A stretch of DNA of 64,000 nucleotides from Candidatus Bathyarchaeota archaeon (GTDB lineage Archaea; Thermoproteota; Bathyarchaeia; Bathyarchaeales; Bathycorpusculaceae), in the NCBI GenBank assembly GCA_963806535.1, contig CAWDYC010000008.1:128001-192000 (forward strand). Reading direction: 5' to 3'. Below, in pieces: positions 21,054-47,603 of this stretch. The position numbers and the translations under genes were made by a program. Each line of letters opens with the position of its first letter. The first letter of the stretch is position 1. The notes below the pieces were generated by a model. That model was not told the DNA's origin, did no database searches, and saw only the letters and a program-made list of their open reading frames with translations.

Positions 21054-21200
21054 GCAAATTTTTTCTTTGTGTTTTAGATTGCTTTTTTGATTTAGGGCTT
21101 GCGATGTTTGCAGGTCACGTACAGAAAAGTGTGGAAACATACAGAAACGTATGGGAAAGTATGGAAAAGGTTAAAAACGTACAAAAAAGTATTAAAAAGT
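21054..21200 (+). repeat. dispersed leader + decamer-array element, copy A
   Basis: 67-bp leader 21054-21120 aligns ungapped with 43115-43181 (55/67 by hand); about 8 units of ~GTAYRGAAAA from 21119. Confidence 0.85.
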
Positions 21201-21544
21201 CCGCAGGAAAAAAATCGAATCTTCAGTCGTGATGGGAAAATGCTTTTATTAATGAAAACACAAAAACTATCGAGTTAAAGAAATAGATTAACTTAGACGC
21301 AGACAAAAAAATTCGGAAGAGAGAGGGGGAATCATTCACCTGCGTCTAAGTTATCCATTTTATTGCGCTTTTGGGCTCGTCCTTCTGCGCGTTATTATAA
21401 CAATGCTTCTTGGATGATAAATAATGATGTGATTGTACAATTACAGTAACAAGTTTAACAAGTTTAAAACAGCATTTGCGCTTGATTGCCCGCGTAAGAT
21501 ATTTAACTTCGGATTCTTTATGGGAAATATGAGGAATTAGAGTA

Positions 21545-23014
21545 CTATTTTTTTCCAAGAGGAAATTCAAGGGTGAACCTTGTTCCTTTTCCAACTTGGC
21601 TTTCAACACTTACCTTACCATTTAAGGCCTCAGTCAACTTTTTGACAACTGCCAAACCGAAACCTTGTCCTTTAGCTTTAGTTGTAAATAGAGGCTTGAA
21701 GAGTTTATCTTTTGATTCCTCTGGTATACCTACACCGGTATCTTGGACAGTTATCACCAACGTATGGTCGTTGTTTTCAGCTTCAAGGGTTAGTTTTCCA
21801 CCTTCTGGCATGGCTTGAACTGCATTTGAAGATAGATTTATTAGAATTCTCTTCATAGCGGCAGGATCGGTCAATAATTTATTAAGGCAAGGCTCTACAG
21901 AATAAAAGACATTTATGTTTTCAGGAATTTTCAAGTTTGAAAAAACATCATCAACAATTTTTGTAAAATCAGTTTCTTCAATTGAAGCAGCTATGGGTTT
22001 AGCATAGTCTTGAAGATCGGTGACAATCTTGTTTATATAAAATGTATTATCTTCAATTGATTGTACGCTTTCCTGCAGGTACTTTTTAGATTGGCTATCA
22101 GGCAAATCCTCTATTTCTTTTTTTGATAAGAACAGCTCGCCGATGATAGCTTGCAAGGGATTGCGGATGTCATGACCAACCATCCCCGCTGTAGCGCCAA
22201 TTGCAGCTAGACGTTCATTATCTTGAAGCTGTTTTTCTAAACTCATACGCTTACTAATATCATTAAATAATATGCCCACTTTCCAGGGTTTTCCTTCACC
22301 GACTGGGAATGCAAAAACATCGTAATAACGGTTCAATGCTCTTGCTTCATTAGTGAAACGAACGGGCTCTCCTGTCATGGCGACCTTACCGTAGATCTGA
22401 AACCAATGCTCTTCATGATTTGGAACAAGACTGCGCATTAATTTTCCCGCTGCGTCATGTAATCCCGTCTGTTTCTCAAATGAAGCGTTAATTTCCAGAA
22501 ACCGATAGTCCAGAGGCTTTGCATCTGCATCAAAAATCAACTCGACAATGCAGAAGCCCTCGTCAATCGAATCAAACAATGTTCGGTATCTTGCCTCACT
22601 TACCTTCAGCGAAAGCGTACGTTTTTCAACGGTTTCCTCTAATTTCTTACGTTCAATGGCATAACGTATCGCTCGAAATAGTAAAGTAGCGTCAAACTTT
22701 CCTTTGATAAGATAGTCTTGCGCACCTCTTCGGACTGCTTCTAAAGCTACTGAGTCATCGTTGAAACCAGTTAAGACAAGAATAGGTAATTGTTTCGCGG
22801 ATGCATGTATCTTTTCAAAAGTATTTAGACCCTGACTATCAGGCAGTCCAAGATCAAGCAAAATGGCATCTATGCCATTTGCTGCCAAACGATCTAATCC
22901 TTTTGAAAGCCGGTCGACGCGCTCTATTTTGCGTATACCCGTTTGTTCAGTTAGCATCTCTTCAATAAGCCGAGCGTCACCAGCGTTGTCTTCAATCAGC
23001 AAGATTCTAATTTT
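21545..23014 (-). CDS. hybrid sensor kinase REC-PAS-HisKA-HATPase
   Basis: KIRILLIEDN...LLDLGLPD receiver, PAS, H-box GHDIRNPL, N/G boxes; true start unclear (see findings). Confidence 0.92.
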   Translation of the reverse strand, partial: KIRILLIEDNAGDARLIEEMLTEQTGIRKIERVDRLSKGLDRLAANGIDAILLDLGLPDSQGLNTFEKIHASAKQLPILVLTGFNDDSVALEAVRRGAQDYLIKGKFDATLLFRAIRYAIERKKLEETVEKRTLSLKVSEARYRTLFDSIDEGFCIVELIFDADAKPLDYRFLEINASFEKQTGLHDAAGKLMRSLVPNHEEHWFQIYGKVAMTGEPVRFTNEARALNRYYDVFAFPVGEGKPWKVGILFNDISKRMSLEKQLQDNERLAAIGATAGMVGHDIRNPLQAIIGELFLSKKEIEDLPDSQSKKYLQESVQSIEDNTFYINKIVTDLQDYAKPIAASIEETDFTKIVDDVFSNLKIPENINVFYSVEPCLNKLLTDPAAMKRILINLSSNAVQAMPEGGKLTLEAENNDHTLVITVQDTGVGIPEESKDKLFKPLFTTKAKGQGFGLAVVKKLTEALNGKVSVESQVGKGTRFTLEFPLGKK

Positions 23015-23464
23015 CTATTGCTCCTTTGGAGGCAGTTTTACTATAGTGAACCAGAATTCTTCAAGTGCATGAATTATTTCAACGAATCGGTTTAAGTCAA
23101 CAGGTTTGGTGATGTAGGCGTTTGCATGCAGATTGTATGTTTTGATTATGTCTTCATCTGCTTTTGATGTTGTTAGGATAATCACGGGAATATGCTTAAG
23201 CTTGGGGTCTTTCTTGACTTCAGCTAATACTTCTCGACCATCTTTTCTAGGCAAATTCAAATCCAATAGTATCATATCGGGAATCGGGGCATCTACAAAT
23301 TGTCCTTGCCTATGCAAGAAGTCCATTGCTTCGACGCCATCTTTAGCGACGTAAATTTCGTTTAGTACTTTTGCATCTTTTAGGGCTTCTTTGGTTAACC
23401 GAACGTCTCCAGGATTGTCTTCCACTAGTAAAATATCCACCGCTTCTGCATTAACTTTCTTCAT
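23015..23464 (-). CDS. single-domain response regulator (Rcp1-like)
   Basis: LLVEDNPGD, LLDLNLP, ILTTS, YITKP, FW tail. Confidence 0.95.
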   Translation of the reverse strand: MKKVNAEAVDILLVEDNPGDVRLTKEALKDAKVLNEIYVAKDGVEAMDFLHRQGQFVDAPIPDMILLDLNLPRKDGREVLAEVKKDPKLKHIPVIILTTSKADEDIIKTYNLHANAYITKPVDLNRFVEIIHALEEFWFTIVKLPPKEQ

Positions 23465-23469
23465 TTCTT

Positions 23470-25347
23470 TTAATCACTCCTTTTTTGTTTGTTTAATGTG
23501 AAATAGATAGTTGAACCTTTTCCCACTTGTGACTTGATCCAGATTCGTCCGCCATGGCGTTCTACGATCCTTTTACAAACGGCAAGACCTATTCCGGAAC
23601 CAGGATATTCTTCTCTGGTATGAAGACGCTGGAAAATCTTGAAAAGCCTATCGAAATATTCTGGGGCAATACCTATGCCGTTATCACGCACTGAAAAAAC
23701 GTATTCATTTCCTCTATCTTGAGCTGACACGTGAACTCGTGAGGGCTCTTTTCCATGGAACTTTATTGCGTTGCCGATCAAATTTTGAAGCAGTTGAACA
23801 AGTTGCCCTCCATCAGCGTTAACTACTGGAAGCTTATCATGCGTCACCACTGCGTTGTTTTCCGTAATTGACGCCTTCAGATTCAGAAGCACTACTTCAA
23901 GGGTTGACTCAAGGTTCGTTGGTTCAAATGGCTTGCCAAGTCTGCTAACTCGAGAATAAGTCAAAAGGTCATCGATTAAGCCTCGCATACGGTTGGCTCC
24001 ATCAACAGCGTAGCCAATGAACTCGTCAGCGTCCTTGTCTAATTTTCCTTTGTATCTCCGCTCCAATAGCTGGACGTAACTTGCTACCATGCGCAGTGGC
24101 TCTTGAAGGTCATGCGATGCTACATAGGCAAATTGTTCCAATTCAGAATTTGACTGTTTGAGTTTTTCCATGGTTAGTTTTATTTCATTCTCCATTGCGT
24201 TGCGTTCGGTAACATCTCTTGCAGCTGCAAAAACACCTTGTATGTCGCCTTGTGGGTTTCTATAAATTGATGCGTTGTACAATACGTCGGTAATTTTGCC
24301 CGACTTATGACGAATTGCCAAGGGATAATCTTTGACAAAGCCTTCGGTGAAAACTTTCTGGTATCCTGCTCTTGCATCTCTGGGTTCAGTGAAATAATCG
24401 GAAAAATCGCTATCGACAAGTTCTTCTCGAGTGCATCCGGTAACGTCTTCAGTTGCCTTGTTAACATCGGTAATCTTTCCTTCCTTGCTAATAGTAACCA
24501 GCGGGTCTAAGCTTGCCTCGATTAAGCTTCTTGAATAAAGTGAGGCAGCAAACAATTTTTGTTCAGCTATTTTCCGTTCGGTTACATCACGCGCAGCTGC
24601 GAAAACTCCCTGAATTGTACCATCTTCATTTCTGTAAACTGTGGCATTGTATAATACATCAGTGATTTTGCCAGATTGGTGACGTATAGCAAGCGGGTAA
24701 TCTGTAACGTATCCCTCTGTAAACACTTTTTTGTAACCGATCCGAGCTTTTTCTGGTTCCGTAAAGTAATCTGAAAAATCGCTTCCGATCAATTGATCGC
24801 GTGTGTAGCCAGTGACTTCCTCAGTTGATTTGTTGACGTCCGTGATTTTACCTTCTGCGCTAATAGTAACTAAAGGATCAAGGCTTGCTTCGATTAAGCT
24901 ACGAGAATATAAAGAGACGCTTTTCAGCTTCTCTTCTGCTTGCCTACGCTCAGTGATGTCCCGAGCTGCAGCAAAGACACCTTGAATTTCTCCAGCCGCG
25001 TTCTTGTAAACGCTTGCATTGTACAATACATAGGTTACTTTGCCTGATTTATGACGAATAGCCAGAGGATAATCTCTTACATAGCCTTCCGTGAACACTT
25101 TTCTGTATCCAGCTCGAGCCTCCTGAGGTTTGGTGAAGTAGTCGGAAAAATCGCTTCCAATCAATAAGTCCCTTGAACATCCAGTGACTAGTTCTGTGGC
25201 TTTGTTGACGTCGGTTATTTTTCCTTCGGCACTGATTGTCACAAGAGGATCAAGGCTTGCTTCAATAAGACTTCGTGCATATAACGATGCAGAACGAGTC
25301 TCATCAGCCGTTTTTCCCTTAACCGGTAGCTTTTCGTTTTTCACCAA
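23470..25347 (-). CDS. sensor histidine kinase with three tandem PAS/PAC domains
   Basis: Three ~124-aa repeats starting SLIEASLDPLVTIS; H-box SHDLQEPLR; DNGIG, GSGIGLA. Confidence 0.95.
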   Translation of the reverse strand: MVKNEKLPVKGKTADETRSASLYARSLIEASLDPLVTISAEGKITDVNKATELVTGCSRDLLIGSDFSDYFTKPQEARAGYRKVFTEGYVRDYPLAIRHKSGKVTYVLYNASVYKNAAGEIQGVFAAARDITERRQAEEKLKSVSLYSRSLIEASLDPLVTISAEGKITDVNKSTEEVTGYTRDQLIGSDFSDYFTEPEKARIGYKKVFTEGYVTDYPLAIRHQSGKITDVLYNATVYRNEDGTIQGVFAAARDVTERKIAEQKLFAASLYSRSLIEASLDPLVTISKEGKITDVNKATEDVTGCTREELVDSDFSDYFTEPRDARAGYQKVFTEGFVKDYPLAIRHKSGKITDVLYNASIYRNPQGDIQGVFAAARDVTERNAMENEIKLTMEKLKQSNSELEQFAYVASHDLQEPLRMVASYVQLLERRYKGKLDKDADEFIGYAVDGANRMRGLIDDLLTYSRVSRLGKPFEPTNLESTLEVVLLNLKASITENNAVVTHDKLPVVNADGGQLVQLLQNLIGNAIKFHGKEPSRVHVSAQDRGNEYVFSVRDNGIGIAPEYFDRLFKIFQRLHTREEYPGSGIGLAVCKRIVERHGGRIWIKSQVGKGSTIYFTLNKQKRSD

Positions 25348-25597
25348 ATATAGGTTGCCTTCGTAATAATTTTCAATTAATTAGAGACTATTACAAAATA
25401 TTTGATGATAAAAGCTTTTTCATTTGGTGTAACAAAATTGGACGTACATTATAAAATCATAAGTTATCGCTCAAGTACAATACCTGTCGTGGGGGGTTCG
25501 ACATTTTTGGGGGCATAGTGAAGCATTAGTTAAGTTTAAAATCTTCTCTAAAGATATAGGTAGAGCACCAATCTGAGATCGTAGGGGAAAAGGGTTT

Positions 25598-27814
25598 ATG
25601 GTAAATCAGCCACCGCAACGCGCACGCGGCGTAAAAGTACTCAAAGCCGTCTCGTCACCTCTCAGACTGCAAATCTTAAACTTACTTTTCGACAAAAGCG
25701 CTCTCTCGTACACTGAATTAATGAACCAGTTGAAAATGAATCCCAGCCGAGATGCAGGTAGATTCGCTTATCACCTAAAATTTATGTTAAAAGCTGATTT
25801 GGTTGAGGCAGATGTTGAAGCAAAAAAATATTATCTGACTGACCTTGGCAAAATGGTTCTTGATGTTGCTGATCGTGTGGAAAAGAAAGCGTTTAAGCCG
25901 AAAGGAATGATTGTCCGCACATCCCATTTAACACTTGAAGAGTTTGACGCAAACAAAATAGCTAATTCTCTAATAAAAGAAGCAAAAGTGCCGGCTGAAC
26001 TTGCTCAAAAAGCAGCTAAAGAAACTGAAAAACGTTTAATCAAATCAAAAACAAAGTATTTGACTGCCGCTTTAATCAGGGAAGTCGTGAATGGTATTTT
26101 AATTGAGAAGGGCTATGAAGAATACCGCCATAAACTCACTAGAGTCGGCATGCCCGTGCATGAGGTAACAGTTTCAATTGAATCAAAAGACCAAACCACT
26201 GATTCAACTGCTTTACTTATTAGGGCAGGTCAAGCAGTTCTTAGCGAGTACACTTTACTCAACATTTTTCCAAGAGATATTGCTGACGCTCACCTTTCAG
26301 GTGCCATCCACATTGACAATTTAGGCACATGGATACTGAAACCAAACGAAGTCAGCCATGACATGCGTTTCTTCTTCCAAAACGGGGTCAAACTCGACAA
26401 TCCACTTCAAACATCAATGGAGCCACCGAGAGATTTTGAATCTGCTTTGTCAATTGCATTCAATATGCTTTTGCATGCAAGCAAAGAAACAAATCGGGTC
26501 CAGATATGTAATTACTTCAACATTTTTCTTGCACCCTTTGCTAAAGGTGCTGAAACGACAAGAATAAAGGAAAATTTACGTTTGTTTATTTTAAACGTAA
26601 ACCAACAAACCGAATCTACATTAGTTCTTGAACTTTCAATTCCAAAATCAACCGCTGAAAAAGAAGCAATGGGCCCACTTGGAAAAATCGCAGGAAAATA
26701 TGGCGATTATGCTCAAGAAAGCCAATTGCTGGCCTCAATTATTATTGATATATTCTTGGAAGAAAACGCCAAAAAACCCCTACTTAATCCTAAACTCATA
26801 ATTAGGATTAACCAGGACAGTTTAGCCGATGAAAACGCCAAGGAAATTCTATTTAAGGCACACCGATTATCTGCAGAGAGAGGAACACCCTATTTTGCCA
26901 ACATAACAAAAAAAGAAACCGAAAACACTGTTTTCTCACCTTCAGGAGCTAAACTTTCAGCGGACCTGACAGGAGATTGGGAAACCGACACACTTCGGAC
27001 AGGCTGTCTTGGTTGCGTAACAATAAATTTGCCCAGAATTGTTCAAGAAAGTGAGAAGGACAAAAACAAATTTTTCGAGCTTGTAAGGGAACGTTTTGAA
27101 GTTGCCGCTCGAACCATAGGAATCAAGAACAATGCATTAAAGCAATTTGGAAAAAACTCCTTGCCGTTCCTGCTAAAAAGCTCCAGTGGAGACACTTATT
27201 TCAGGCTTGAAAACTGCTCCAGAATTATCAACTTGGCTGGATTTAGAGAGGCAGTAGAAGCTTTTACCGAAAAAAACATTAACTCTGATGAGAGCCGCAA
27301 GTTTGCCGAAGAAATCATTCAGAATCTTCTGGCCTTCAAACAGAAAATCGGCAGAAAACATGGAAAGAGACTGTACCCCGTCATTCTTAGCAATCCTGAA
27401 GCGTCTGAGAGGCTCGCCCAATTAGACATTGAGAAGTATGGAGTCGCCAAGACAAAGTTTTCGGGAACCAGAGAAAAACCATATTACTCAACCGCTAGAC
27501 GATTCCAAGTGAAGGCTGCTGAAATTCTAACCATAGCACCCGAAATACTAGAAATGGCGCAAAAAATGAAGGGGCTAAGTGTCGGTGGAACCCTGGATAT
27601 TATAGAGTTAGATGGTGCTGAAGTAAAACCTGAAGCATTAATGGATTTAACAAAACGCATTATTGAAAACCAATCTTTGGAGTTTTTCACTTACAACCGC
27701 ATCATCAGTTACTGTGATAACTGCAAGAAAAGCTGGTTTGGAACAGTTCACAAATGTCCATCCTGCGGCTCAATGAGCGCATTGACGACGTTCGATCGCT
27801 TCACTTCTATATGA
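25598..27814 (+). CDS. ArsR-like wHTH + ATP-cone + NrdD-like (class III RNR) fusion, apparently catalytically inactive
   Basis: wHTH in aa ~10-95, ATP cone (IVRTS...EEFDANKIANSL), ADAHLSGAIHI, VTINLPRI, CDNC/CPSC Zn ribbon; no RxxGY glycyl loop. Confidence 0.85.
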   Translation: MVNQPPQRARGVKVLKAVSSPLRLQILNLLFDKSALSYTELMNQLKMNPSRDAGRFAYHLKFMLKADLVEADVEAKKYYLTDLGKMVLDVADRVEKKAFKPKGMIVRTSHLTLEEFDANKIANSLIKEAKVPAELAQKAAKETEKRLIKSKTKYLTAALIREVVNGILIEKGYEEYRHKLTRVGMPVHEVTVSIESKDQTTDSTALLIRAGQAVLSEYTLLNIFPRDIADAHLSGAIHIDNLGTWILKPNEVSHDMRFFFQNGVKLDNPLQTSMEPPRDFESALSIAFNMLLHASKETNRVQICNYFNIFLAPFAKGAETTRIKENLRLFILNVNQQTESTLVLELSIPKSTAEKEAMGPLGKIAGKYGDYAQESQLLASIIIDIFLEENAKKPLLNPKLIIRINQDSLADENAKEILFKAHRLSAERGTPYFANITKKETENTVFSPSGAKLSADLTGDWETDTLRTGCLGCVTINLPRIVQESEKDKNKFFELVRERFEVAARTIGIKNNALKQFGKNSLPFLLKSSSGDTYFRLENCSRIINLAGFREAVEAFTEKNINSDESRKFAEEIIQNLLAFKQKIGRKHGKRLYPVILSNPEASERLAQLDIEKYGVAKTKFSGTREKPYYSTARRFQVKAAEILTIAPEILEMAQKMKGLSVGGTLDIIELDGAEVKPEALMDLTKRIIENQSLEFFTYNRIISYCDNCKKSWFGTVHKCPSCGSMSALTTFDRFTSI

Positions 27815-27817
27815 AAG

Positions 27818-28771
<954 letters not shown>

Positions 28772-28922
28772 CTAAATAACACTTTGTATAGAACCAATAG
28801 TTTTTTTTCCGCCAAGTTAGTGCTTATATGCTTTTGTGGTTGTTCGGCGACTGCTACACAGTTTTAATAGCAACCGTTCGCCCATAGTATTTCCAATTAG
28901 AAATTTTAAAAGGTGTTTTAAA

Positions 28923-29120
28923 ATGGAAGCAATAATGGAAAAAATTTCTAAACGACAAAAAACAAAAGAATCTTTCAATTATAACGGATATATGCCCAGA
29001 ATATACGAAGTCAGATCTCCATGCCAATGGCTTGAAAATTGCCACGACGGCAAATGCCCAGCTTTCACCAAACTTAATGGTAACTTTTATTGCGCACGCG
29101 CAAACCAAATCCACCTCTAA
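28923..29120 (+). CDS. small Cys-rich hypothetical protein
   Basis: ATG at 28923, 65 aa with four Cys (CQWLENC...CPAF...FYC). Confidence 0.45.
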   Translation: MEAIMEKISKRQKTKESFNYNGYMPRIYEVRSPCQWLENCHDGKCPAFTKLNGNFYCARANQIHL

Positions 29121-29184
29121 ATTTTTCTATTTTTAATTGAAAAAGTTTATCATTAACTTTCTAAGAGTATTCATTAAAATCGCA

Positions 29185-30096
29185 TTAACTTTTCAAAGCA
29201 GCTATCGCTTCTTTAATGATAGCAACTGATTTTCCAAAACGCTCCTTCGTTTCATTTGACAGATCTAACTCAATTATTTTTTCAACTCCCTGTTTTCCAA
29301 CAACTACAGGTACACCGATAGAAACGTCTGAAAAACCGTATTCACCACTAAGACAAGTTGATACGCTCATAACCCGGTTTCTTCCCGTCAGAATAGCGTC
29401 CGCCATAATCGCAATAACGGTTCCGGGAGCGTACTCTGTTGAACCTTTAAGTTTTATCACGTCTGCCCCCGAAGATACCGTTAAATGTATTATTTTTTCA
29501 ATCTGCTCTTTATTTAGCAATTTTGTTACTGGAATACCCGAGACAGAAGCGTATTCAACAAGTGGAACCATGGAGTCGCCATGTTCACCAATCACTAAAG
29601 CACGTGTGTCCTCTCTCGAAACATTAAGTTCATTTGCAATGTACGTTCTAAAACGCATTGTATCCAAAATATTTCCCATGCCAAACAAGCAACATCTAGG
29701 AAAACCTGATTCTTGCGAAGCAACATAAGTCATGATATCAACCGGGTTGGTAACAATCATAAGCTTGCACTTAGGTGCATATTTAACAACTTCCTTAACG
29801 ATTGACCGCATGATTTGGGCATTGGTATTCAATAAATCGAAGCGTGTCATATCAGGTCTTCTGCCAAGCCCAGCCGTTACAATAACAAGTTCTGAGCCTT
29901 CCATTTGGCTGAAATCACTAGTCCCTTGGATTGTTCCATCAAACTCGATGGCGGGCGCTGCCTGCATCATATCAAGGGCTTCCCCTTTTGCCTGGTTTTC
30001 GTTGGCGTCAATTAGAACTACATCGCTTATTTTATAACGAAGAATATCGAAGGCAGCGGCACTTCCGACTTTGCCCGCTCCAATTACTGTTATCAT
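29185..30096 (-). CDS. mdh: malate dehydrogenase (LDH-like)
   Basis: GAGKVG, RRPDMTRFDL, TNPVD, GEHGDSM. Confidence 0.93.
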   Translation of the reverse strand: MITVIGAGKVGSAAAFDILRYKISDVVLIDANENQAKGEALDMMQAAPAIEFDGTIQGTSDFSQMEGSELVIVTAGLGRRPDMTRFDLLNTNAQIMRSIVKEVVKYAPKCKLMIVTNPVDIMTYVASQESGFPRCCLFGMGNILDTMRFRTYIANELNVSREDTRALVIGEHGDSMVPLVEYASVSGIPVTKLLNKEQIEKIIHLTVSSGADVIKLKGSTEYAPGTVIAIMADAILTGRNRVMSVSTCLSGEYGFSDVSIGVPVVVGKQGVEKIIELDLSNETKERFGKSVAIIKEAIAALKS

Positions 30097-32965: not shown

Positions 32966-32968
32966 GTT

Positions 32969-35761: not shown

Positions 35762-35764
35762 CAA

Positions 35765-38532: not shown

Positions 38533-38602
38533 CGATATCCCAAAGCCGTAACGAGATTCATGCTTAAAAGGAGTACTCATTCGGAGGGAGTTTTCAATAA
38601 GA

Positions 38603-38899
38603 TTAAGTTCGCAAACGTAGCCTTGGAAACTTAAGTTGTCCTACATACTTCATTATCCACTGCACCAACTCGTCGTATGCCTCTGAGCCTGCCTTCGTCA
38701 AAACAACCGCCCCTTCATTATCAACCTCGACAAAGTCTTTCTCAGACATCCAAACCAAGTATTTTACCAACTTATCGTAGGCTAACCCTGTGGAAGTTGC
38801 TAGGGCGGTCTTGTTCATCTTGTTTTTCTCTTTCAACGCCTTGATTATTCGGGCGATGACGTAGAGGTCAGGTTTGGAACTCGGCTCTCCTGATTTCAA
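38603..38899 (-). CDS. winged-helix DNA-binding protein
   Basis: KTALATSTGLAYDKLVKYL...LTKAG archaeal wHTH pattern. Confidence 0.85.
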   Translation of the reverse strand: MKSGEPSSKPDLYVIARIIKALKEKNKMNKTALATSTGLAYDKLVKYLVWMSEKDFVEVDNEGAVVLTKAGSEAYDELVQWIMKYVGQLKFPRLRLRT

Positions 38900-39578
38900 G
38901 GCTAAACCACCTGAGCTCCAAAAGAAGCATATCTAAAGCATGAATTTCTTTGTAACGCCTCAAAAGATCGCGACCCAGCAGCAAAAGAACAAGAATTAAT
39001 GCAAACGTAACGGATACGAATGTACTGAGAAAAATGGGTCTGTGCAGGAAGTAAAATGTCAAAGCACTACCAACTAGTTGCAGACCAAAAAACATAACCA
39101 GCCAATAAGCCGCTGCCTTCAGCCATCCGTATACAGTGTAGCTAAGTTTTCCCATTGAGATTTCGTCAAGAGTGGTATCCCAATCAAGCTCTATCAATAT
39201 TTCCAATGCAAACGGAAATCCGCCTGAAAGCTTCTCTTTCCATTCCCCAGTCTTGACTGAATTTATCCGTCTTTTAACGTAAAATACTCCTGCTGTTAAG
39301 CCTATTAACGGAATAAGAAGCAGTATGAAACCAAAGATGAAACTTTGAGCGCTTCTTGATGCAGGATCAAACCCTAGAATTGTGAATAAAACGCCGGTCA
39401 CAAGAGAAATGGCGATTGAACCGATAACTATGAGGGAGAATTTCTTGAGTGAACGAGATAGGGCGTTATAGCGTTTTATGTGATCGAGGGTTTCCATCAG
39501 CTCTGAAACTTTAGAAACGACCCTGTTTTCGCTTAGCACTGAATCTTTCATTTCGCCTTTGACTCTGTTTTGTGACAT
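38868..39578 (-). CDS. membrane protein (4 TM)
   Basis: Hydrophobic segments; overlaps the wHTH gene; co-oriented with the ABC genes. Confidence 0.75.
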   Translation of the reverse strand: MSQNRVKGEMKDSVLSENRVVSKVSELMETLDHIKRYNALSRSLKKFSLIVIGSIAISLVTGVLFTILGFDPASRSAQSFIFGFILLLIPLIGLTAGVFYVKRRINSVKTGEWKEKLSGGFPFALEILIELDWDTTLDEISMGKLSYTVYGWLKAAAYWLVMFFGLQLVGSALTFYFLHRPIFLSTFVSVTFALILVLLLLGRDLLRRYKEIHALDMLLLELRWFSLEIRRAEFQT

Positions 39579-39707
39579 CGAAATCCTTGTTTCCGTTTCA
39601 TTGAAGGGGCAAAGACTGAAGGGAAATATAAAGTGAACTCCCTCCCAATGAGCAAGAAATACCTTCAGGTTTCACTCATCTTGAATTGATATAGGAGAGT
39701 TGGTTTT

Positions 39708-40040
39708 TTGGAATCAGGCTACGTTAGAATTGCTGACAAATCGGAAGTACTAATTGGGAAAATGAAAAAAGTATCAGTTCAAGGAAAAGAGATTTTGGTA
39801 GCAAACGTAAACGGGAGTTTCTATGCGATAGGCAATGTATGTACTCATGAACGTGGAGATCTTTCACAAGGAACACTTGAAGACAACTTTGTCACTTGTC
39901 CAAGGCATAAATCAAAATTCGACGTCACTACAGGCAAAGTGGTTTCGCCTCCGAAAATGGTTCTGTTTCACCCGAAAATAGCGGATGAACCATCCTTCAG
40001 TGTTAAAACAGAAAATAACGACATATTAATTAAAATATGA
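39708..40040 (+). CDS. Rieske [2Fe-2S] ferredoxin
   Basis: CTH...CPRH motifs. Confidence 0.95.
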   Translation: MESGYVRIADKSEVLIGKMKKVSVQGKEILVANVNGSFYAIGNVCTHERGDLSQGTLEDNFVTCPRHKSKFDVTTGKVVSPPKMVLFHPKIADEPSFSVKTENNDILIKI

Positions 40041-40182
40041 TTTCTAATTTATGCCGTTTTGCCCCTTCGTTCTTCATTTGGGTAAAGTATTTTAGCTCAT
40101 CACCTTTTGTATCTGGAAACATTGGATCGTATTTAGGGTTGAAGTGGCATGAAGATTAGGTACCGCTCAAAGTGCAGGTAGG

Positions 40183-40737
40183 TTGTTTGGTGTGACCATC
40201 CAGAATGCAATAGAGTATGTTGTGGGGCGGTTTATCCGCTTGTTTACTAAGTTGCCTTTGAGGGGAATTATTCATTTGGTTTCGCAGAAAGGTACATTTA
40301 TGGATTATTTTAAGGGCTTCGAGAAAAATATTGCTGTTCGAAGAATATTTGGGGAAGAAACTGAAAAAATTCTCAAGAACCTTAAGGTAGAGTTCATCTG
40401 GTTCGGTTACATGGGAGTCGAAGATAACGATGGACACCTGATTGTGAACAAGCGTTACTTGACCACTGGAAGCCGAATAGACATTTATCTGGACGTCATT
40501 CACGAACTCTGCCACGTTAAGCAGCATATGGAAAAAAGAGACCTTTTTGACCCACGCTACGATTACGTAGATAGACCAACCGAAATCGAAGCATACCGTT
40601 ACGCTGTGCAGGAAGCAAAACGCATTGGGCTAAGTGCAACAAAAATTCGTCAGTACCTTAAAACTGAAATGATGAGCGTTGAAGTTTTAGACAGGCTAAT
40701 TAGGAACATGAAAGTGAACCTTGAAGAAAAACCATGA
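40183..40737 (+). CDS. zincin-like HExxH protein (start may be MDYFKG near 40300)
   Basis: IHELCHVKQ...EIEAY. Confidence 0.75.
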   Translation: MFGVTIQNAIEYVVGRFIRLFTKLPLRGIIHLVSQKGTFMDYFKGFEKNIAVRRIFGEETEKILKNLKVEFIWFGYMGVEDNDGHLIVNKRYLTTGSRIDIYLDVIHELCHVKQHMEKRDLFDPRYDYVDRPTEIEAYRYAVQEAKRIGLSATKIRQYLKTEMMSVEVLDRLIRNMKVNLEEKP

Positions 40738-40818
40738 GCTCTCTCAAATTAAAATCAGATTCAACATCTGTTTATCACTTTAAGTACGTTAAATAAGTCA
40801 TATCTCAAAAAAGAGCTG

Positions 40819-40990
40819 TGGTGGGGCCGGCCGGATTTGAACCGACGACCTTTACCCAAGAACCGCGCAAGGCAGTTCTTTACGGGTTTCTCTAGACACG
40901 CTCCAGAACTTCGTCATTCCTCTGAGCGAGGTCAGCAAACCCGTTGCTTCTTCTGGAGCCCGTCGTCATACCTGTCTAGACTACGACCCC
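40819..40990 (-). tRNA. tRNA-Trp(CCA) with two introns (40888-40952 at position 37/38; 40852-40881 at 43/44)
   Basis: Acceptor GGGGTCG/CGGCCCC-A-CCA, anticodon arm ACGGG-CTCCAGA-CCCGT, T arm GTCGG-TTCAAAT-CCGGC; both inserts form BHB motifs; 77 nt after splicing. Confidence 0.92.
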
Positions 40991-41035
40991 ACCTAGGCAC
41001 GGCAATTAAGTGAATTTAGAGTAATAAAAGTTTAT

Positions 41036-41658
41036 TCATTGATTAGATGGCTGAGGTTGCGTTTCGTGTAGAATTTTGTAGCCAACGGTAATTATCCAGA
41101 CTGCTCCGGCGAGACCCGAGATGATTTCTGGAATAGCTACGTTCGAGGCATAATGAATTATGAAAATAGAGAACCCATGGAGTGGCAGCGGCTATAGCAA
41201 CAAGTATCGTGAACATTGCCATCTTTGTTTGATGTTTAACTGCAAAAGCGCCTGTAAAAATCAGTAGAGAAATTGGCAGAAACACAAAGAAAGCAACAGA
41301 AACCAAGTAATGCGTCGGAGAAAAATTTTCATTAAATATTCCTATACAGATTAACGCTATTGTAGCTATTGCAAAGACGCCTGCGCCAATTTTACCAAGC
41401 AAATTTCCCTTAAAATATGAATACATGCCAAATATTGCAAAGTTAAAGGCAAGAAGCCCACAAGCGACCAATCCGAAATTGAAAATTATCCCTGTAACAC
41501 CTGGTATGACTCCTAAGTCGCTTAGGGCATTATTTGTCCAGCTGAAACTGGGAATAGGTTGCGATGGCTATTATGATGCAGATGAATGCGAAGATGGGTG
41601 CTACTACTCCGCTTGCCGCTCCAATTCTTTGCAAACTGTTGGCTCCAGAGTCAGACAA
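41036..41658 (-). CDS. DUF998 membrane protein, interrupted by two 1-nt frameshifts (~41553, ~41165)
   Basis: FSWTNNALSDLG motif, GIFNE...HYLVS and AIPEII recovered by joining frames. Confidence 0.8.
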
Positions 41659-41697
41659 ACCTTGATTCCTCAACAATCTTTATGGGTTTAACTTGTT

Positions 41698-42835
41698 TTA
41701 AGAGTTTGCATCCTCTGGAACAAACCGTCTCAGATTCTGAAGCGAATGCAGTTTCTCTTTCTCGCCGATTTTCGCTTGCTGCACTGATTCTTTGAGGATT
41801 TGGATTGATTCATCCATTGCTTTGCGGTCAACTGGATATGGAACCCCGTCTTTGCCGCCGAATGCAAAACTGAATTTCACTGGGTCTTCCCAACTTGGCT
41901 TTTCACCATAAACCAACTCTGCTACAAGAGCTAAACCTCGAACTGTGGCTGGTCCAACTCCTTTCACGCTTAAGAGTTCCTCGTAGTTGCTGGGTTGAAA
42001 CTCGTAGACTCGGCTCAGCGTATCCCAATTGATGTTTCTGGGCATGTTTAGCGTATTGAGGGTTTGCTGCCATGGGTCATCTGTTTTTGGTAGCCAATTT
42101 TGCAGCGAGGCTTGGTTGAGTGGTTTTGCTGTGGATTGAATGAGATTCATGAGTTTGCGTGTGGGTTCCTTGGCAAGGTCAACGGACGCTTTTCTTGCGG
42201 CTTCGCTGTCTTTTGCCACCATGTTTAGGGCTGTTTCACGTTTTGTGTCTCCGACTATAGCGTTGTGGGGTTCAACAACAAAATCAGCTACGTTATCTGA
42301 TAGCCAATGGTAACGTCTTGCCGAGCGGTCTTGCTCGCTCATGCCCTGCTGAATAACCGCCCACTCCTCATCTCTTAGTTACTAAGAAGGCGTGATGATA
42401 CAGTTGGTATCCCGCTTGAATTGCAGCGTTGTCAACTTTTGCAGCCATCTTGCTGTTGTAAGTTAGGGTTTGGATTGTTTCTTCTGAGAAACCAAACTTT
42501 TCACCTGCCAATGCGATGTCGCTTGGTGTTTTCTTTGAGGTTTTGCCTTTTCCTCCGCAGACAGCGATGCCGTGCTCTTCCGGCGATATAGCGCCTTTGA
42601 GGATGCCTGTGACTACGGTGGTTACTCCGCTGCTGTGCCAGTCGTAGGCTAAAACGCAGCCGAAAGCTTGAAACCAAAACGGATCCGACAAACGTTGAAT
42701 AAAAGCGGCTGCACCATACTCCTCAATCATAATGTCCGCTATTTCTTTGGCCAGTTTACGCATGCGCACAGTAAGCCATGAAGGTGCTTTTCCGCCGTGA
42801 AGAGGTAGGTTTGCAACGCCAGTTCTAAACATCAT
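41698..42835 (-). CDS. DUF763 protein, split by a 1-nt frameshift near 42373
   Basis: LPLHGGKAP, WHSSGVTT, YHHAF / WAVIQQGM, ARRYHW, FAFGGKDGVPYPV. Confidence 0.88.
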
Positions 42836-42920
42836 ATATTCACTTGTGATGGACAGCTTCTGATATATTGATTTTTCTTATTGGCACAGTAGCTATTTAG
42901 GTATTTTTGCTTCGGACAGC

Positions 42921-43060
42921 GCAATTTTGTTGTTTGTGTTTTGGGTTGCTTTCTTGGTTTAGGGTTTGTTTTGTTTGCAGGTTGCGTCTTTAAATGTAGG
43001 AAAATGTAGAAATCTGTGAGAATCTGAGAAATGTAGAAAAATGTAAGAAAAAGGAAGAAG
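42921..43060 (+). repeat. dispersed leader + decamer-array element, copy B
   Basis: Leader 42921-42987 (59/67 vs copy C by hand), then ~GTAGRAAAAT units. Confidence 0.85.
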
Positions 43061-43114
43061 TTGGCGTAAACTTTCAAGAAGTGAAGCTTAGGCATCTCTA
43101 CTGCATTTTCTTAC

Positions 43115-43260
43115 GCAAATTTGTTCTTTGTGTTTTGGATTGTTTTCTTGGTTTGGGGTTTGTGGTGTTTGCAGGATGCGTCACTATAAGTCACTAGAAG
43201 TCATAGGAAGTCACCAAAAGTCACTACGCGTCATAAAAAGTCACAGAAAGTCACAAAAAG
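43115..43260 (+). repeat. dispersed leader + decamer-array element, copy C
   Basis: Leader 43115-43181, then 8 units of GTCAY-N3-AA type (43180-43259). Confidence 0.9.
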
Positions 43261-43310
43261 ACCCTGCCCAGCTCTTAAATCTTGAAAACCTCCACAGCAC
43301 CTAACAAAAA

Positions 43311-43450
43311 TTATTTTGAATCCCAATCAGATTCGCCCCAATACAAATCCTGCAGTTCAACAGCGCTAAGCTGCTTACCCGCGCCCACCTTAAGTTCCGT
43401 ACCACAGTCAGGACACTGAATAGTTTCGCCAGGCAACGGAAACGGAAACA
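43311..43450 (-). pseudogene. LysW-like carrier protein C-terminal fragment
   Basis: PGETIQCPDCGTELKV...DLYWGE; first CxxC missing. Confidence 0.5.
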
Positions 43451-43806
43451 CAACGCTGCTGAAGGAATTGGAAGAACTCAAAAAAGACCGATTTAAACAG
43501 CAAGAGTTGACCAAGATACTTGATAAGCTGCAGACTGAGGATGAAAAGAGAAAAATGATTCAAGAAGTCATGGAAAACTTAGGGTTAAAACAATCACAGC
43601 TATAAAACATGAAGATTCAAAAATTGATCTAAATGATGCTGTTGATAAGTTAGCTCAAGTTTATGAGAAGAAAGATTTAGAACGGGTTTTGAAGGAGAAC
43701 AGAAACGGAGATTCTTAATTCTCCATTATTTTCCTTAATTATGACTAACAATAAGTTCAATTTTTAATAAACCTTAAATCCGCATTGCGAAGAAATAGCA
43801 ATAAAC

Positions 43807-44223
43807 ATGGCGGAAAAAAAGGCTCCAGAATCATCAAATCCGAATTACGAAACGATTGGCTATGCAAAACCTATTTTGGTTGTTCTCGCAGTTTTTGTAA
43901 CGCTATCTTTGTTGGCTCTCTATCTTGTGGAGACCGATAGTATTAGCCAAAATGCATTTTATATTTGCTTTGTTGCTTTGTTGATGGGTCTTTCCATAAT
44001 GCATGAGATGATCAACATATTTGTTAGAGTAGCCCGCAAGATTGCAATTTTGTTTATTTCGACAATTCTTATGGTTGCTTTTCTATCTGTGATCTACCTC
44101 ACGTTAGTTTCCTTTTTAGGATTTTGGCAGTACTTTGGATTCGCAGTGTGCTTTGGGATTGCTCCTTACTTTGCGAGGATTTCACTGGCATATTTTGAAT
44201 GGAAAATTAAAAAGCAAAGATAG
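43807..44223 (+). CDS. hypothetical 4-TM membrane protein
   Basis: Hydrophobic 138-aa ORF. Confidence 0.7.
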   Translation: MAEKKAPESSNPNYETIGYAKPILVVLAVFVTLSLLALYLVETDSISQNAFYICFVALLMGLSIMHEMINIFVRVARKIAILFISTILMVAFLSVIYLTLVSFLGFWQYFGFAVCFGIAPYFARISLAYFEWKIKKQR

Positions 44224-44631
44224 TTTCATTATTTCGCTTTATCACTATTAGCACGTGCTGTCCTCCCCCCTTTTATCTATTATCAACTTCGAGTTCTTTC
44301 GAGGAATTGGCTTTTTAATATCTTGAATAAACAACCTGTTACCTGAGGGTTACTGGATATTTAACCCATTAAGACATTTCACCATACTAAACAACATAAC
44401 AAAGAGATTGCTCATGCATGATCAATACCCCTTTCAAGCATCAACCCGTTAACCCCTGAACAACCCCAAACAACCAAACAAAACCCAAAACAAACCCCTT
44501 CGCCCCGATAGGTCAAAATCCGCGCCAACAACACAAAAATCATACCCCATTTTAGATGGTCATAGTGTAAGTATGTTTTCTAAGGAGAACAAAAACTAAA
44601 AGCGATTTGAAATAATACTGTTGACGAGAGC

Positions 44632-45039
44632 ATGAACTTAAAGAAAATCTTTGGGAATCATGACTGGAAACCGAGAGAAGGTTTAGTTTACAAAAGCTGG
44701 ACTAAAGGCGATTCCCATTTCGGAAAAAGTGCAACGGTAAAAATATTTTATGAAGTTGATAACTTCTATAGAGGATACTTGAAACAAAACAACAATTGGT
44801 ATCAAGGAACATTCAGAGTGAAAAATGGACAATGTGAAATAAGATTGAAAAATGACCAAAAGACCTTCAAATTGACCACTTCAATAGATAATGTATCCTT
44901 TAAGAAAAAAATTGAGCACATTAACACTATCGCAAAGTATGGTCAGAACGGTTACGCTGGCACCGAGATTCAATACACCGCCAAAATTATTAATCCACAG
45001 ATTACACAAGTTGAGCAAGTGACCGATGGCAAAAATTAA
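44632..45039 (+). CDS. hypothetical protein
   Basis: 135-aa ORF with ATG start in an accessory region. Confidence 0.65.
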   Translation: MNLKKIFGNHDWKPREGLVYKSWTKGDSHFGKSATVKIFYEVDNFYRGYLKQNNNWYQGTFRVKNGQCEIRLKNDQKTFKLTTSIDNVSFKKKIEHINTIAKYGQNGYAGTEIQYTAKIINPQITQVEQVTDGKN

Positions 45040-45073
45040 ATGCAAAATGCCTTAATCTAAATAAGGCGGTAAA

Positions 45074-45661
45074 GTGGAAAAGCAAGAGACTGGTATATGT
45101 TACGAATGCTCCACCAAGAATATGGATTCATCCAAGAAGCCCGTTTTCCACTGTGTTATATGCCGAAAATGGTTCTGTGAACAGCATTTAAAGCCAAAGT
45201 TCCCATACTTTGTTGATTGGGAAACCCAATTTGATGTGCAAGGAAACCCAGCAGTTAAGGCAATGTTTTACTCGGAATATGGAAGACAAGATGGACACAC
45301 AGACTTTGTTTATTTACGGTGGAAAATTGAAAAGATGGAAGTTGAAAACAAGTTACAGGACAAAATAATTCAGGAAAAAATTGATAATATGGTTGAGTTT
45401 GGCTCAAATAGAAGTTCTTTAGAAATTCTAATTTCAAGCAAGAAAAAGAAGAACTACAAAAACGCGTGGGGAAATAAGTTCTCTGTGCCAAAAGAGGTTT
45501 ATTCAAACAAAATTTATCGGGAAAAATTAGATGGTGCCAATTCTTCAAGTCAAGTAAATGAGATTCTGTATGATTACTATTTTCAAGACAAATCGTTACT
45601 CTTAACCGAAAAGAAGCTGAAGCAAGCTGAAGAAAAACAAAAGAAACATTGGTGGCAATAG
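45074..45661 (+). CDS. AN1-like zinc-finger protein
   Basis: CYEC...CVICRKWFCEQH. Confidence 0.7.
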   Translation: MEKQETGICYECSTKNMDSSKKPVFHCVICRKWFCEQHLKPKFPYFVDWETQFDVQGNPAVKAMFYSEYGRQDGHTDFVYLRWKIEKMEVENKLQDKIIQEKIDNMVEFGSNRSSLEILISSKKKKNYKNAWGNKFSVPKEVYSNKIYREKLDGANSSSQVNEILYDYYFQDKSLLLTEKKLKQAEEKQKKHWWQ

Positions 45662-46357
45662 TCAAGTATTATGGGTTCGTTAAGCAAAGAAGAAAAGTAA
45701 TCAAAAGACACTTCTAACTTGACAATGCAAAAAAGACGTTATAAGTTTCTCAAAAGCCTTAAAAGTAAATGGCATAAAATAGCGTTAACATGGCACTTCT
45801 AACAATTGACTTGAATGCCTTTTTCTAGGAGCAGTTTTGAATTGTGTAGTCGATAGCTTTATTTTTGCAACATTGAAGATAAAAAAATTCACATTAATGC
45901 TTACGATAATCTTCACTTTCGCAATTCCTACATTTTCGATAATCTTTTATGTTCAATCAAATCCTGACTTTAATCAGACAATCCCAGCTTTCACTAACTA
46001 CGTGTTTGCCTATTTATACAATTTAGTAGCTTCGTTATTTCTTTTCCGTTTTCATATATAATTAGTGCGATCTTTTACTTGGCAAGTGGTGGACGCACCG
46101 AAACGCCAGAGTTTTGAACCAAAAGCGAATGATGCAAAAACTTAAAAATAAACATCCACTAAATAATGCTTGGTGTAGTTTGTGCCAGAAAGAAGAAAGA
46201 GAACATACACCTTTAGGAAAGACCAATTGGTTCCTTATGAATCTGGAAGCTTTATGCATGAAGAAGTAAAGTCTCAAAGGCAAGCTGTAAGAAATTTTGA
46301 AGAATTTAGTCAACCGAGAAAGCGTAGAAGACAATCGCTTTTCTAAGTGATAAAAGT

Positions 46358-46699
46358 TTGGCAAGACGCAAAAGTTCAAGCAATAATGATCCGTTTGGTT
46401 TTGTTAGCTTTGACTTTGGTTTAGATAGTTTCTCTAAGCGTCAAACTTTGGCAAATAACCGCATGAAAGGAAGAATGGCAGAAGACAGCTTCCATTTAGA
46501 ACAGAATTTACGAGGAAATGATTGCCGAAAGATTCACAAAGGCGGAGATTTTGTGGTTCAAAAAAGAGATATCTTTGGCAACAATGTAGGTAAGCCCACC
46601 GTTCATGAAATAAAAACAGGAAACGCTAAGCTTTCAGAAGCCCAAAGAAGAAACAAAGCAAAATTAGGAAACAGAGGCTACAAAGTCGAAAGATACTGA
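46358..46699 (+). CDS. small PD-(D/E)XK-fold nuclease-like protein
   Basis: GRMAE...GDFVV...HEIKTG..LSEAQ. Confidence 0.7.
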   Translation: MARRKSSSNNDPFGFVSFDFGLDSFSKRQTLANNRMKGRMAEDSFHLEQNLRGNDCRKIHKGGDFVVQKRDIFGNNVGKPTVHEIKTGNAKLSEAQRRNKAKLGNRGYKVERY

Positions 46700-46782
46700 G
46701 ACATCAGTACACTCTTGTTTATTGACTTTGAATAATCGAGAGTTTGAAGTTTTGTTTCACTTTGAGAGAGCACAATGAGAGT

Positions 46783-47211
46783 CTAAAGGTCTTTCTTTTC
46801 ATGCAAATCTAATCCGCGTTCTAAAAGACTGAAGAAACCTGCGACTGCAAAGTTTGTTTGAATGGCTGAGAATGAGATGTCTCCAATGTAGATGTCAATA
46901 TTTGAAACTTTGATTGTATGAGAACCTAAACCATATTGTGCGAGGTCTGCGAAAGCTAAAATGAAAGAAATTAAGCTGATACCGAAGAAAAGAAGACGCG
47001 CCTTATGAGTTGTTTTCTTAATAGTTTCTTCACTAAACCACAAAAACAGTGGAATAATTATCAAGCAAGTAGTACAAAATCCCCCAGTAACCACTTTAAG
47101 AGAAGGGGTAATTGTTGAATAAAGGATAAAAAGATATGCGCTTGGAAATGATCCTGCTATCGCACCAGCTAATATCAATCTCGCACGACTACCTAACTTC
47201 AGCTTTTTCAT
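46783..47211 (-). CDS. hypothetical membrane protein
   Basis: 3-4 hydrophobic segments. Confidence 0.6.
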   Translation of the reverse strand: MKKLKLGSRARLILAGAIAGSFPSAYLFILYSTITPSLKVVTGGFCTTCLIIIPLFLWFSEETIKKTTHKARLLFFGISLISFILAFADLAQYGLGSHTIKVSNIDIYIGDISFSAIQTNFAVAGFFSLLERGLDLHEKKDL

Positions 47212-47473
47212 CTCAGTACTATTGATTCTTCAGAGAATTTCAATTTTTCTTAACCAAATTTGCTTTCTTTTGTATCTGTGTTTCTTTGAACATTACTCGC
47301 TGCCCCAATTAGCAACCGATTTTACTGTCTGAATTGAGCATCCACCTGCAAACTGATTACGACTGCATTCATACGGACAATTTATATTACACCACTCTTC
47401 GAGGTTTCAAAAGTTGAGAAAATCCTATTTTGTTTTCCTTCAGATTCCATTTATAATCGACCATAACAATTGT

Positions 47474-47603
47474 GCCGAATTTTTTTTAAAATTGTTTTGG
47501 GCTTCTTTTTTAATTTAGGGCGTGATTCGTTTGTAAGCTGCGTATACTGAAGTACACCAAAGTACAAGGAAGTACACCGAAGAACCAGCATCGTACAATG
47601 AAG
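47474..47603 (+). repeat. dispersed leader + decamer-array element, copy D (more diverged)
   Basis: TGTTTTGGGC..TTTAGGG..GTTTGTAAGCTGCGT leader, then GTATACTGAA GTACACCAAA GTACAAGGAA GTACACCGAA. Confidence 0.75.

Follow-up and report, generated by a model that had tools for sequence, protein, structure and literature searches.

Short direct repeats bound cooperatively by small dimeric proteins are known from AbrB/MazE antitoxin operators, from the parC-ParR and parH-ParG pairs and from omega heptads. For MraZ of Mycoplasma genitalium, cryo-electron microscopy resolved four GTG(G/T) boxes separated by 6-nt spacers, with one subunit per box in the major groove, and the transcription start site (TSS) lies inside the first box of an operator through which the protein represses its own operon (available part of PMC12957436). 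Among archaeal proteins, PhS018 has been grouped with the AbrB/MazE swapped-hairpin DNA binders and called uncharacterised, and no targets of it are described in the available part of PMC4333400. Here we analyze a 64,000-nt stretch of the genome of a Candidatus Bathyarchaeota archaeon (GCA_963806535.1, referred to as G000), namely G000:C8:128001-192000, called the window below, which contains four copies, A to D, of an element made of a T/G-rich leader followed by an array of 10-bp repeats.

A first-pass annotation of the window recognised no described element with this architecture; the bacterial MraZ operator, however, has the same layout (available part of PMC12957436). We think it probable that the arrays function as operators, each specific to one paralogue within a family of small PhS018-like proteins, and that the roughly 84 copies without a gene are orphan promoter-operator modules that proliferated in one genus. 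A full-text literature search returned nothing joining Bathyarchaeia with AbrB, or swapped-hairpin proteins with direct repeats in archaea, and a broader search of titles and abstract openings returned nothing relevant to the element.

A Dispersed Family of Leader-Array Units

All four plus-strand copies are present where they were first reported (21054, 42921, 43115 and 47474), and the ungapped leader identities over 67 nt given for A-C (55) and B-C (59) were reproduced exactly, with A and B sharing 54 of 67 positions. Copy D is indeed more diverged: it comes into register with the other copies only at +3 (start 47477), where it matches them at 41-47 of 67 positions, compared with 23-24 in the unshifted register. 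A search for the leader beyond the window, which had been proposed as a check, was carried out with an nhmmer profile built from the four copies. At E<1e-3 it detected 92 copies, spread over all 12 contigs of the assembly (2.95 Mb), so that chance does not account for the similarity of the leaders. Copies are also present in congeners, and the element thus belongs to a dispersed family much larger than could be seen from the window. A sequence-only covariance model of the leader (R1), built from 44 copies and run on the window with filters off, gave exactly four full-length matches (E 7e-20 to 1.7e-13), the next one being a 24-nt fragment with E 0.012.

The unit consists of up to three parts. 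In many copies it opens with a 5' module, GTTATTGACGG followed by a T-run. The leader of about 67-70 nt, with the consensus AAATTTTGTTCTTTGTGTTTTAGGTTGCTTTTTTGATTTAGGGTTTGATTTGTTTGCAGGTTGCGTC, comes next and is followed by contiguous 10-nt boxes, each made of a 3-4-nt core and an A/T-rich rest. The final 3 nt of the leader change together with the box core (GTC, GAC, GTG, GGT, GTA, GTT) and are the first box. Over the 80 nt past the leader, self-match at lag 10 averages 0.56 in the 92 copies, versus 0.26-0.36 at other lags, multiples of 10 excepted. Among lags 4-16, the strongest self-match falls at 10 in 87 copies; the 10-nt periodicity beats 99% of 300 shuffles in 79, and by a rough count of units the median is 6 boxes and the range 1-13. 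What was first described from four copies, i.e., non-coding, helically phased arrays with a 10-nt period and a core that differs per locus, dispersed as a family, is thereby borne out across the genome. The most frequent array types are GTCA.. (23 copies), a ..AAGAAAAT group (about 20) in which the core is GTA, GGA or GCA and GTCT.. (8), while the rarer GACT, GGTC, GTAC and GTGT types have 2-4 copies each.

Arrays of the same type at different loci share their unit order (the unit ACTACGCGTC, for example, recurs at the same array position), which points to inheritance and recombination of existing arrays, not to fresh growth locus by locus. The pair formed by copies B and C together with the linker between them recurs at at least five other loci. 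The proposal that each array expanded independently from a fixed anchor by a leader-anchored repeat-adding mechanism finds no support: the leader end is itself the first box, unit order is kept between loci, and the arrays of sister species differ by whole-unit insertions or deletions and by replacement, for which ordinary slippage and recombination suffice. Two of the B-C composites, 90-91% identical to that of the window, lie inverted about 11 kb apart (G000 C5:354108-354395, minus strand, and C5:365172-365687, plus strand), and similar back-to-back pairs occur at C3:146-167 kb and at C8:127.4-149.1 kb, the latter ending at copy A.

Several other readings of the sequence were considered and rejected. 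The leader has an open frame resembling a lipoprotein signal (..FAGC), but its conservation has no codon periodicity: in the alignment of 92 leaders the mean information at the three codon positions is 1.28, 1.20 and 1.24 bits, and the 'Cys' codon of this sole open frame is TGA in 17 of the 92 copies. The array cannot be coding, because a 10-nt period cannot hold a frame. Nor is it a CRISPR array, as was recognized from the start, since the 10-nt units are contiguous and have no spacers, in contrast to the 24-48-nt repeats and unique spacers of such arrays. A structured non-coding RNA was also rejected: RNAalifold found 0 pairs on 44 copies, mutual information across the leader alignment revealed neighbour correlations only, and whole units on either strand fold no better than shuffled sequences (z +1.24, -2.28, +1.44). 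A candidate leader hairpin (61-67/80-86) was discarded because its two segments change in parallel, as direct repeats do, and not in a compensatory manner. With the covariance models of Rfam 15, the window has a match at the gathering threshold to tRNA alone, and nothing at E<=1 was found in 42850-43350. This tRNA-Ala (GGC), at window positions 60433-60510, is the sole Rfam or ARAGORN match in the window.

The Linked 92-aa Protein

Several arrays run directly into an open reading frame (ORF) starting MPLTQRVTFK. A tblastn search with one such 92-aa ORF identified nine loci in the genome, none of them within the window. At eight of these loci a leader (E<1e-3) ends 70-128 nt upstream on the same strand; at the ninth there is only a weak leader match (E 6.3). 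In other metagenome-assembled genomes (MAGs) of Bathyarchaeia, 36 loci encode relatives of the protein, and a match to the hidden Markov model of the leader lies just upstream in 26 of them; the remaining distant loci that were inspected still carry ..AAAGCTTAAATC..CACGTC followed by 10-nt boxes. At the MAG loci, GGTGA/GGAG sites resembling Shine-Dalgarno sequences can be seen by eye between the last box and the start codon. The existence of a cognate binding protein for each array type was a guess of the first-pass annotation, and it can now be given a name: the candidate is the 92-aa PhS018-like gene, which stands directly after the leader and array at eight of nine loci and whose clades are tracked by box type. 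Across species, the FKRP clade has GT[CT]AAAAAAA boxes in 4 of 4 cases, the GTG clade has its box in 3 of 3 and the NRFQ[IV]P clade has G[TA]A boxes in 3 of 3. This is what co-evolution of protein and box predicts, and taken alone it argues for it weakly. The genes downstream of the eight gene-linked copies are mutually unrelated and, on inspection of the ORFs, are not division genes; no toxin or partition ATPase partner stands beside the 92-aa gene at these loci.

Pfam assigns the 92-aa protein to no family at E<=10 apart from a chance-level match to TMP_3. The 67 homologues found are all metagenomic or from Bathyarchaeia, and a few of them are named AbrB/PrlF-type or MraZ by JGI. An AlphaFold (AF2) model based on 37 homologues (predicted local distance difference test score, pLDDT, 90.8) has two beta-beta-alpha-beta halves (E-E-H-E / E-E-H-E) forming one barrel. 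The closest structure is that of PhS018 from Pyrococcus horikoshii (2GLW; Foldseek E 4.3e-4, template-modelling score, TM, 0.71), to which VIA-align superposes the model with Z 11.3 and a root-mean-square deviation (rmsd) of 2.3 A over 84 residues at a sequence identity of 17-19%. A profile of the 37 homologues searched against PDB reaches the same entry (2glw_A) with a weak E of 0.059. Judged by the model, we take the protein to be an AbrB-like beta-barrel formed by a single chain, as in PhS018.

The Leader as a Putative Promoter

Upstream of the genome's 39 tRNA genes there is a B recognition element and TATA box (BRE/TATA) of the form AAAGCTTAAAT, AAACCTTAAAT or CGCTTAAAT. Gene-linked copies, both here and in other MAGs, have the identical motif at leader positions 83-95, about 17 nt before the first box, and on this sequence evidence what has been called a leader is best read as a promoter region rather than as a transcribed leader. 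Given the position of the motif and the usual archaeal TATA-to-start spacing, transcription is therefore predicted to start within the first one or two boxes. When copies were scored for the TATA box, it was strong in three, weak in three and lacking in two of the eight gene-linked copies, and strong in 7, weak in 26 and lacking in 51 of the 84 gene-less ones. At orthologous sites of G000 and its closest relative, G013, the leaders are 79% and 87% identical versus 32-60% for the flanks; the leader appears to be under constraint.

Copies without a Gene

About 84 of the 92 copies, copies A-D among them, have no 92-aa gene behind them. Any N-terminal motif of the gene is found within 260 nt in 10 of the 92 copies, and about three orphans (C4:545560, C11:7100, C4:396670) have a convincing N-terminal gene remnant.

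Copy A lies between the genes for Nop5/56 and a hybrid kinase. It begins with the 5' edge module at 21036..21053 (plus strand, as are all the window copies), GGTTATTGATGGGTGTTTGT, a variant of the GTTATTGACGG-T-run, and it is here that the inserted DNA starts according to the alignment to five element-free congeners. The T/G-rich, promoter-like leader (21054..21121; nhmmer E 2.5e-16, R1 66.5 bits) shares its last three nucleotides, the GTA at 21119-21121, with the array as the core of the first box, and the array (21119..21198) has eight boxes of 10 bp of the GTA/GTG type, which is also that of the gene-linked copy G000 C6:40173. Congeners G004, G031, G016, G019 and G061 are devoid of about 175 bp at this site that correspond to the 5' module, leader and array, and G064 has a larger gap. 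Copy A is thus a clean insertion of leader and array with no trace of a gene. In G013 the element is present at the same site with a leader 79% identical, and its boxes are of the GTC-A rather than the GTA type. The hybrid kinase gene has, downstream of it, a perfect-stem inverted repeat (21290-21350, TTAACTTAGACGCAG...CTGCGTCTAAGTTA), kept in six congeners, which is probably the terminator of that gene.

Copies B and C stand in tandem. The leader of copy B (42919..42988; nhmmer E 7.8e-14, R1 66.1 bits) is followed by an array of about seven boxes, one of them irregular (42986..43059), of the (GTA/GGA)-AGAAAAT type shared with the gene-linked copy C11:177472, and by a 50-nt linker that is conserved in the other B-C composites. 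The leader of copy C (43113..43182; nhmmer E 6.3e-15, R1 63.7 bits) leads into eight boxes of the GTCAC type (43180..43260; period 10, 8.1 copies by Tandem Repeats Finder, TRF), near-identical versions of which exist at at least five other genomic loci. The diverged leader of copy D, in its +3 register (47475..47544; nhmmer E 2.1e-12, R1 46 bits), precedes 4-5 boxes of the GTAC type (47542..47591; sequence inspection and TRF), and a 50-codon ORF without a family match (47598-47750) lies directly 3' of this array.

These three copies mark a 4.9-kb island (42881..47745), a segment that is missing between the DUF763 gene and the 106-aa/EF-Tu-domain genes in nine congeners (G019, G001, G010, G031, G003, G004, G026, G020 and G029), where the flanking genes are 81-756 bp apart. 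Copies B and C lie about 40 nt in from its left end, and copy D about 150 nt in from its right end. The earlier view that copies sit at the edges of accessory DNA therefore holds for B/C and D, while copy A is itself an insertion of about 175 bp. None of the seven island ORFs has a Pfam match. Within the island, an intergenic C/A-rich tract with a period of about 10 nt (44459-44500, AACAACCCCA-like, TRF) recalls, in reverse complement, the T/G-rich style of the leader; the leader model gives no match there. The neighbouring DUF763 gene is present as two adjacent ORFs (41698-42835, minus strand) of 155 aa, covering profile positions 1-148, and 214 aa, covering 159-319, which means either that the gene has been split or frameshifted or that it exists naturally as two genes.

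Elsewhere in the genome, a second site shared by G000 and G013 (C7:79040) has leaders 87% identical and arrays of 6 versus 8 units that differ by whole units. This copy lies within a 460-bp insertion; G004, G016 and G019 have empty sites there, with the flanks 12, 17 and 3 bp apart. The copy at C9:108078 falls where synteny is broken in G004, G016 and G031, and at C6:184659 the flanks are too variable for an empty-site reading.

Gene context was assessed with our own codon-usage gene caller (3467 calls, 80% coding). Leaders are intergenic in 89 of 92 cases, and in 23 cases a further copy follows in tandem. For the 69 copies that are last in their cluster, the next gene is co-directional in 29 cases (within 250 nt in 16), convergent in 39, and replaced by the contig end in one. 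Orphans thus have no orientation preference toward neighbouring genes, and most of them are therefore not promoters or operators of their neighbours. Copies are clustered, with 20 in the first 76 kb of contig C10, among ordinary cellular and toxin-antitoxin genes, and none across most of C3. Neighbouring clusters share orientation more than expected (14 switches in 52 pairs, P ~5e-4). This has no relation to the replication strand: oriented GC skew, TA skew and gene-strand bias are near zero around 64 clusters.

Two observations concern particular copies. At G000 C10:13058-13992 (minus strand) an element stands 222 nt ahead of a gene pair encoding a MazE-type antitoxin and PIN_3, that is, an AbrB-type operator-like array before a different AbrB-type gene. 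At G000 C4:414077 (plus strand) the sequence about 60-130 nt past the leader end is like the reverse complement of a tRNA 3' half (..GGCAGGATTTGAACC..), and several further copies have a tRNA gene no more than 1 kb away, which may point to integration sites.

Distribution in the Genus

Of 36 other species in the genus, 23 have leader matches with R1, in counts from 1 to at least 76; 24 genomes representing other families in the order have none. Neither leader nor protein is present in 13 of the 36 congeners, both are present in 20, leaders only (1-5) in three, one of which is just 58% complete, and the protein only in none. Leader counts and counts of the 92-aa gene are correlated (Spearman rho 0.88 over the 36 congeners, a descriptive figure, as kin are not independent). 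There is about one leader per gene in G001, G010, G012 and G026 and at least 10 in G002, G013, G031 and G035, which means that gene-less modules expanded in some lineages only. G012, which has just 2 leader matches, carries three tandem 92-aa genes with 1,539-bp spacing (C1:7626-10973).

Proposed Explanation and Its Alternatives

We propose that every unit represents the promoter-operator region belonging to small archaeal proteins of one family (92 aa, PhS018 type) that bind DNA. The arrays are read as operators because they have the same geometry as the MraZ operator and stand before the gene of an AbrB-related barrel. In this explanation the leader would consist of a T/G-rich upstream part and an ancestral BRE/TATA (AAAGCTTAAAT) about 17 nt before its end, with transcription starting inside the first one or two boxes, and the array would offer 4-10 direct-repeat boxes, one helical turn apart. 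One protein molecule would bind each box along one face of the DNA, and the promoter would be shut or tuned in the manner of bacterial MraZ. Paralogues would have diverged jointly with their boxes, giving rise to separate protein-operator pairs, and the module of leader and array would have multiplied without the gene in one genus of Bathyarchaeia. Its orphans lie between genes without a fixed orientation, occur in tandem clusters and flank inserted islands, and recombination would add, remove or exchange their boxes. Most likely, the orphans are additional arrays that bind whichever paralogue has the same box, acting as titration, local silencing or boundary sites; a minority of them may serve as promoters, and some may be mere relics.

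A number of points weigh against this explanation. A canonical TATA box is absent from the expected place in 51 of the 84 orphans and in two of the eight gene-linked copies, the strongly conserved T/G-rich 5' half of the leader stays unexplained by a promoter-operator function, and, as noted above, orphans have no preferred orientation relative to the genes next to them. Orphan box types GAC-T, GTC-C and GCA/GTA-C, the last including copy D, have no matching paralogue in the assembly, which is 92% complete. The correspondence between box type and protein clade would equally result from plain co-inheritance of neighbouring DNA. As for the protein, it has no Pfam AbrB or MraZ domain, MraZ-DNA complexes match its model only at Z 4.2-4.8, which is the tool's own noise range, and the suggestion that it works like MraZ is an analogy drawn from the operator layout and from the published placement of PhS018.

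Two further interpretations of the gene-less copies can be put forward, neither of which we regard as likely. According to the first, the units are a new sort of archaeal dispersed element, a promoter-operator cassette lacking inverted ends and target duplications that spreads and swaps arrays by leader-anchored recombination, arrives with or next to incoming DNA and wires islands to orthogonal MraZ-like repressors for boundary or silencing purposes, so that the box would be an address code. According to the second, to which we give about the same doubtful standing, they are functionless relics, i.e., duplicated promoters of a decaying gene family kept alike by gene conversion and as yet uneroded. 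The gene remnants behind about three orphans, the 51 orphans without a canonical TATA box, the random orientation to neighbouring genes, and the truncated leaders and tandem debris would all fit decay. However, an N-terminal motif of the gene is near only 10 of 92 copies and copy A is clean, with no gene trace; leaders have stayed 79-87% identical where the flanks are 32-60% identical; and the 10-nt phase and the core are kept in 79-87 of the 92 copies.

The remaining explanations appear less likely still. The array could act as RNA, transcribed as a 5' untranslated region where a copy is gene-linked and as a short RNA where it is an orphan, and read by a multimeric protein, leading to translational autoregulation or titration; TRAP and CsrA sponges are precedents for repeated RNA motifs bound by proteins. 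The predicted promoter would place the boxes between the TSS and the Shine-Dalgarno-like site and hence in the mRNA, and units that are no more structured than shuffled sequences would suit a single-stranded platform. We nevertheless consider an RNA-level function quite unlikely: the period is the helical repeat of B-DNA, most orphans have no TATA box, and there is no Rfam match to the element. Archaeal transcription terminates at oligo-T, and the T-runs of the leader would end plus-strand transcripts. The nearest solved layout, moreover, is a double-stranded DNA operator (available part of PMC12957436), and the relatives of the fold that are cited in the available part of PMC4333400 bind double-stranded DNA.

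It is slightly less probable yet that the copies belong to a mobile-element family as its ends or, as the first-pass annotation supposed, as its iterons or centromere-like sites, with boxes read by replication, partition or transposition machinery and the leader as a recombination anchor or attachment site. Such a role would account for the insertion polymorphism seen at three of three loci examined in detail, for the copies that bracket the 4.9-kb island in direct orientation or sit at a synteny break, for the patchy copy number within one genus (0 to at least 76) and for the coherent orientation of neighbouring clusters. The element also has traits of MITEs (miniature transposable elements with inverted repeats), being short, non-autonomous, multi-copy and polymorphic for presence. 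Against this, Pfam detects no Rep, ParA/ParB-type, integrase or reverse transcriptase gene among 77 ORFs of the copy-richest 80 kb (on C10) or among 13 window ORFs, so that none stands beside the examined copies and an iteron or centromere role is left unsupported; one DDE transposase gene lies 2 kb from a copy in the same 80 kb. The alignments of 92 copies contain no terminal inverted repeats, complementarity between leader and array is at chance (z +1.2, -2.3), and no target-site duplication is seen at two empty-site comparisons, where the flanks are diverged. In IMG/VR an exact leader 15-mer occurs at 27 loci, with the model matching only 18-23 nt at the seed and the full leader present at 0 of 27. 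The sole gene consistently linked to the arrays is that of the small regulator-like protein.

Finally, it is very improbable that the arrays are sequence-unspecific structural DNA with no dedicated partner, such as a phased A-tract bend or a site positioning archaeal histones, because, although in many arrays A4-6 tracts recur in 10-bp phase along 60-90 bp, the length wrapped by archaeal histone oligomers, the conserved part is a 3-4-nt G-containing core that differs between loci and is kept within an array, several box types are T-rich or mixed (GAC-T, GTG-T, GTT), and the strict linkage to one gene family and the co-occurrence with it would be left unexplained.

Comparison with Known Systems

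The operator explanation, which we prefer, can be compared with three kinds of described systems. With MraZ the family shares direct-repeat boxes made of a 3-4-nt G-rich core and a spacer, the 10-bp period, the location upstream of the regulator's own gene, two AbrB-like half-domains per chain, a start site at the first box, which is predicted here, and autoregulation, which is to be expected. Unlike MraZ, the protein described here is 92 aa long and has neither the oligomerisation helices of MraZ nor a match to the MraZ (UPF0040) Pfam family; there are 4-13 boxes instead of 3-4; many paralogues are present per genome, each with its own box, and about ten gene-less operators per gene copy; and the dcw (mraW-fts) context is lacking. 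The likeness to PhS018 lies in the archaeal origin, the length of 92 aa and a shared fold (84 residues superposed at rmsd 2.3 A, Z 11.3), in contrast to a sequence identity of merely 17-19%. If the operator explanation is right, the arrays would provide the first testable target and mode of action for archaeal barrels of the PhS018 type, which the available part of PMC4333400 calls uncharacterised, and would extend to Archaea the MraZ-style operator, in which each subunit has its own box and boxes follow each other at every helical turn. In that case the family would also supply small regulators that differ naturally in the 3-4-nt boxes they are specific for, and these could be used as orthogonal repressor-operator pairs.

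AbrB/MazE operators and tandem-repeat centromeres resemble the arrays, as we read them, in that small beta-sheet or barrel proteins bind repeats upstream of their own gene. They differ in that here there is no toxin or partition ATPase partner, the repeats are one helical turn apart and they are specific to the paralogue.

Bacterial families of dispersed repeats with modular tandem parts, such as BOX, REP/BIME, Correia elements and MITEs, are, like the element described here, high-copy, intergenic, lineage-restricted and insertion-polymorphic, have variable internal modules and can carry promoters or protein-binding sites. In contrast to them, the Bathyarchaeia element has no terminal inverted repeats or palindromes, no target duplication has been seen at its sites, it would derive from a regulator's own promoter-operator, and its array can be exchanged between box types. 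The approximately ten-fold excess of orphans, the restriction to one genus, the placement at insertion sites and the exchangeable arrays make this family a tractable case of regulatory DNA behaving like a repeat family in uncultured archaea.

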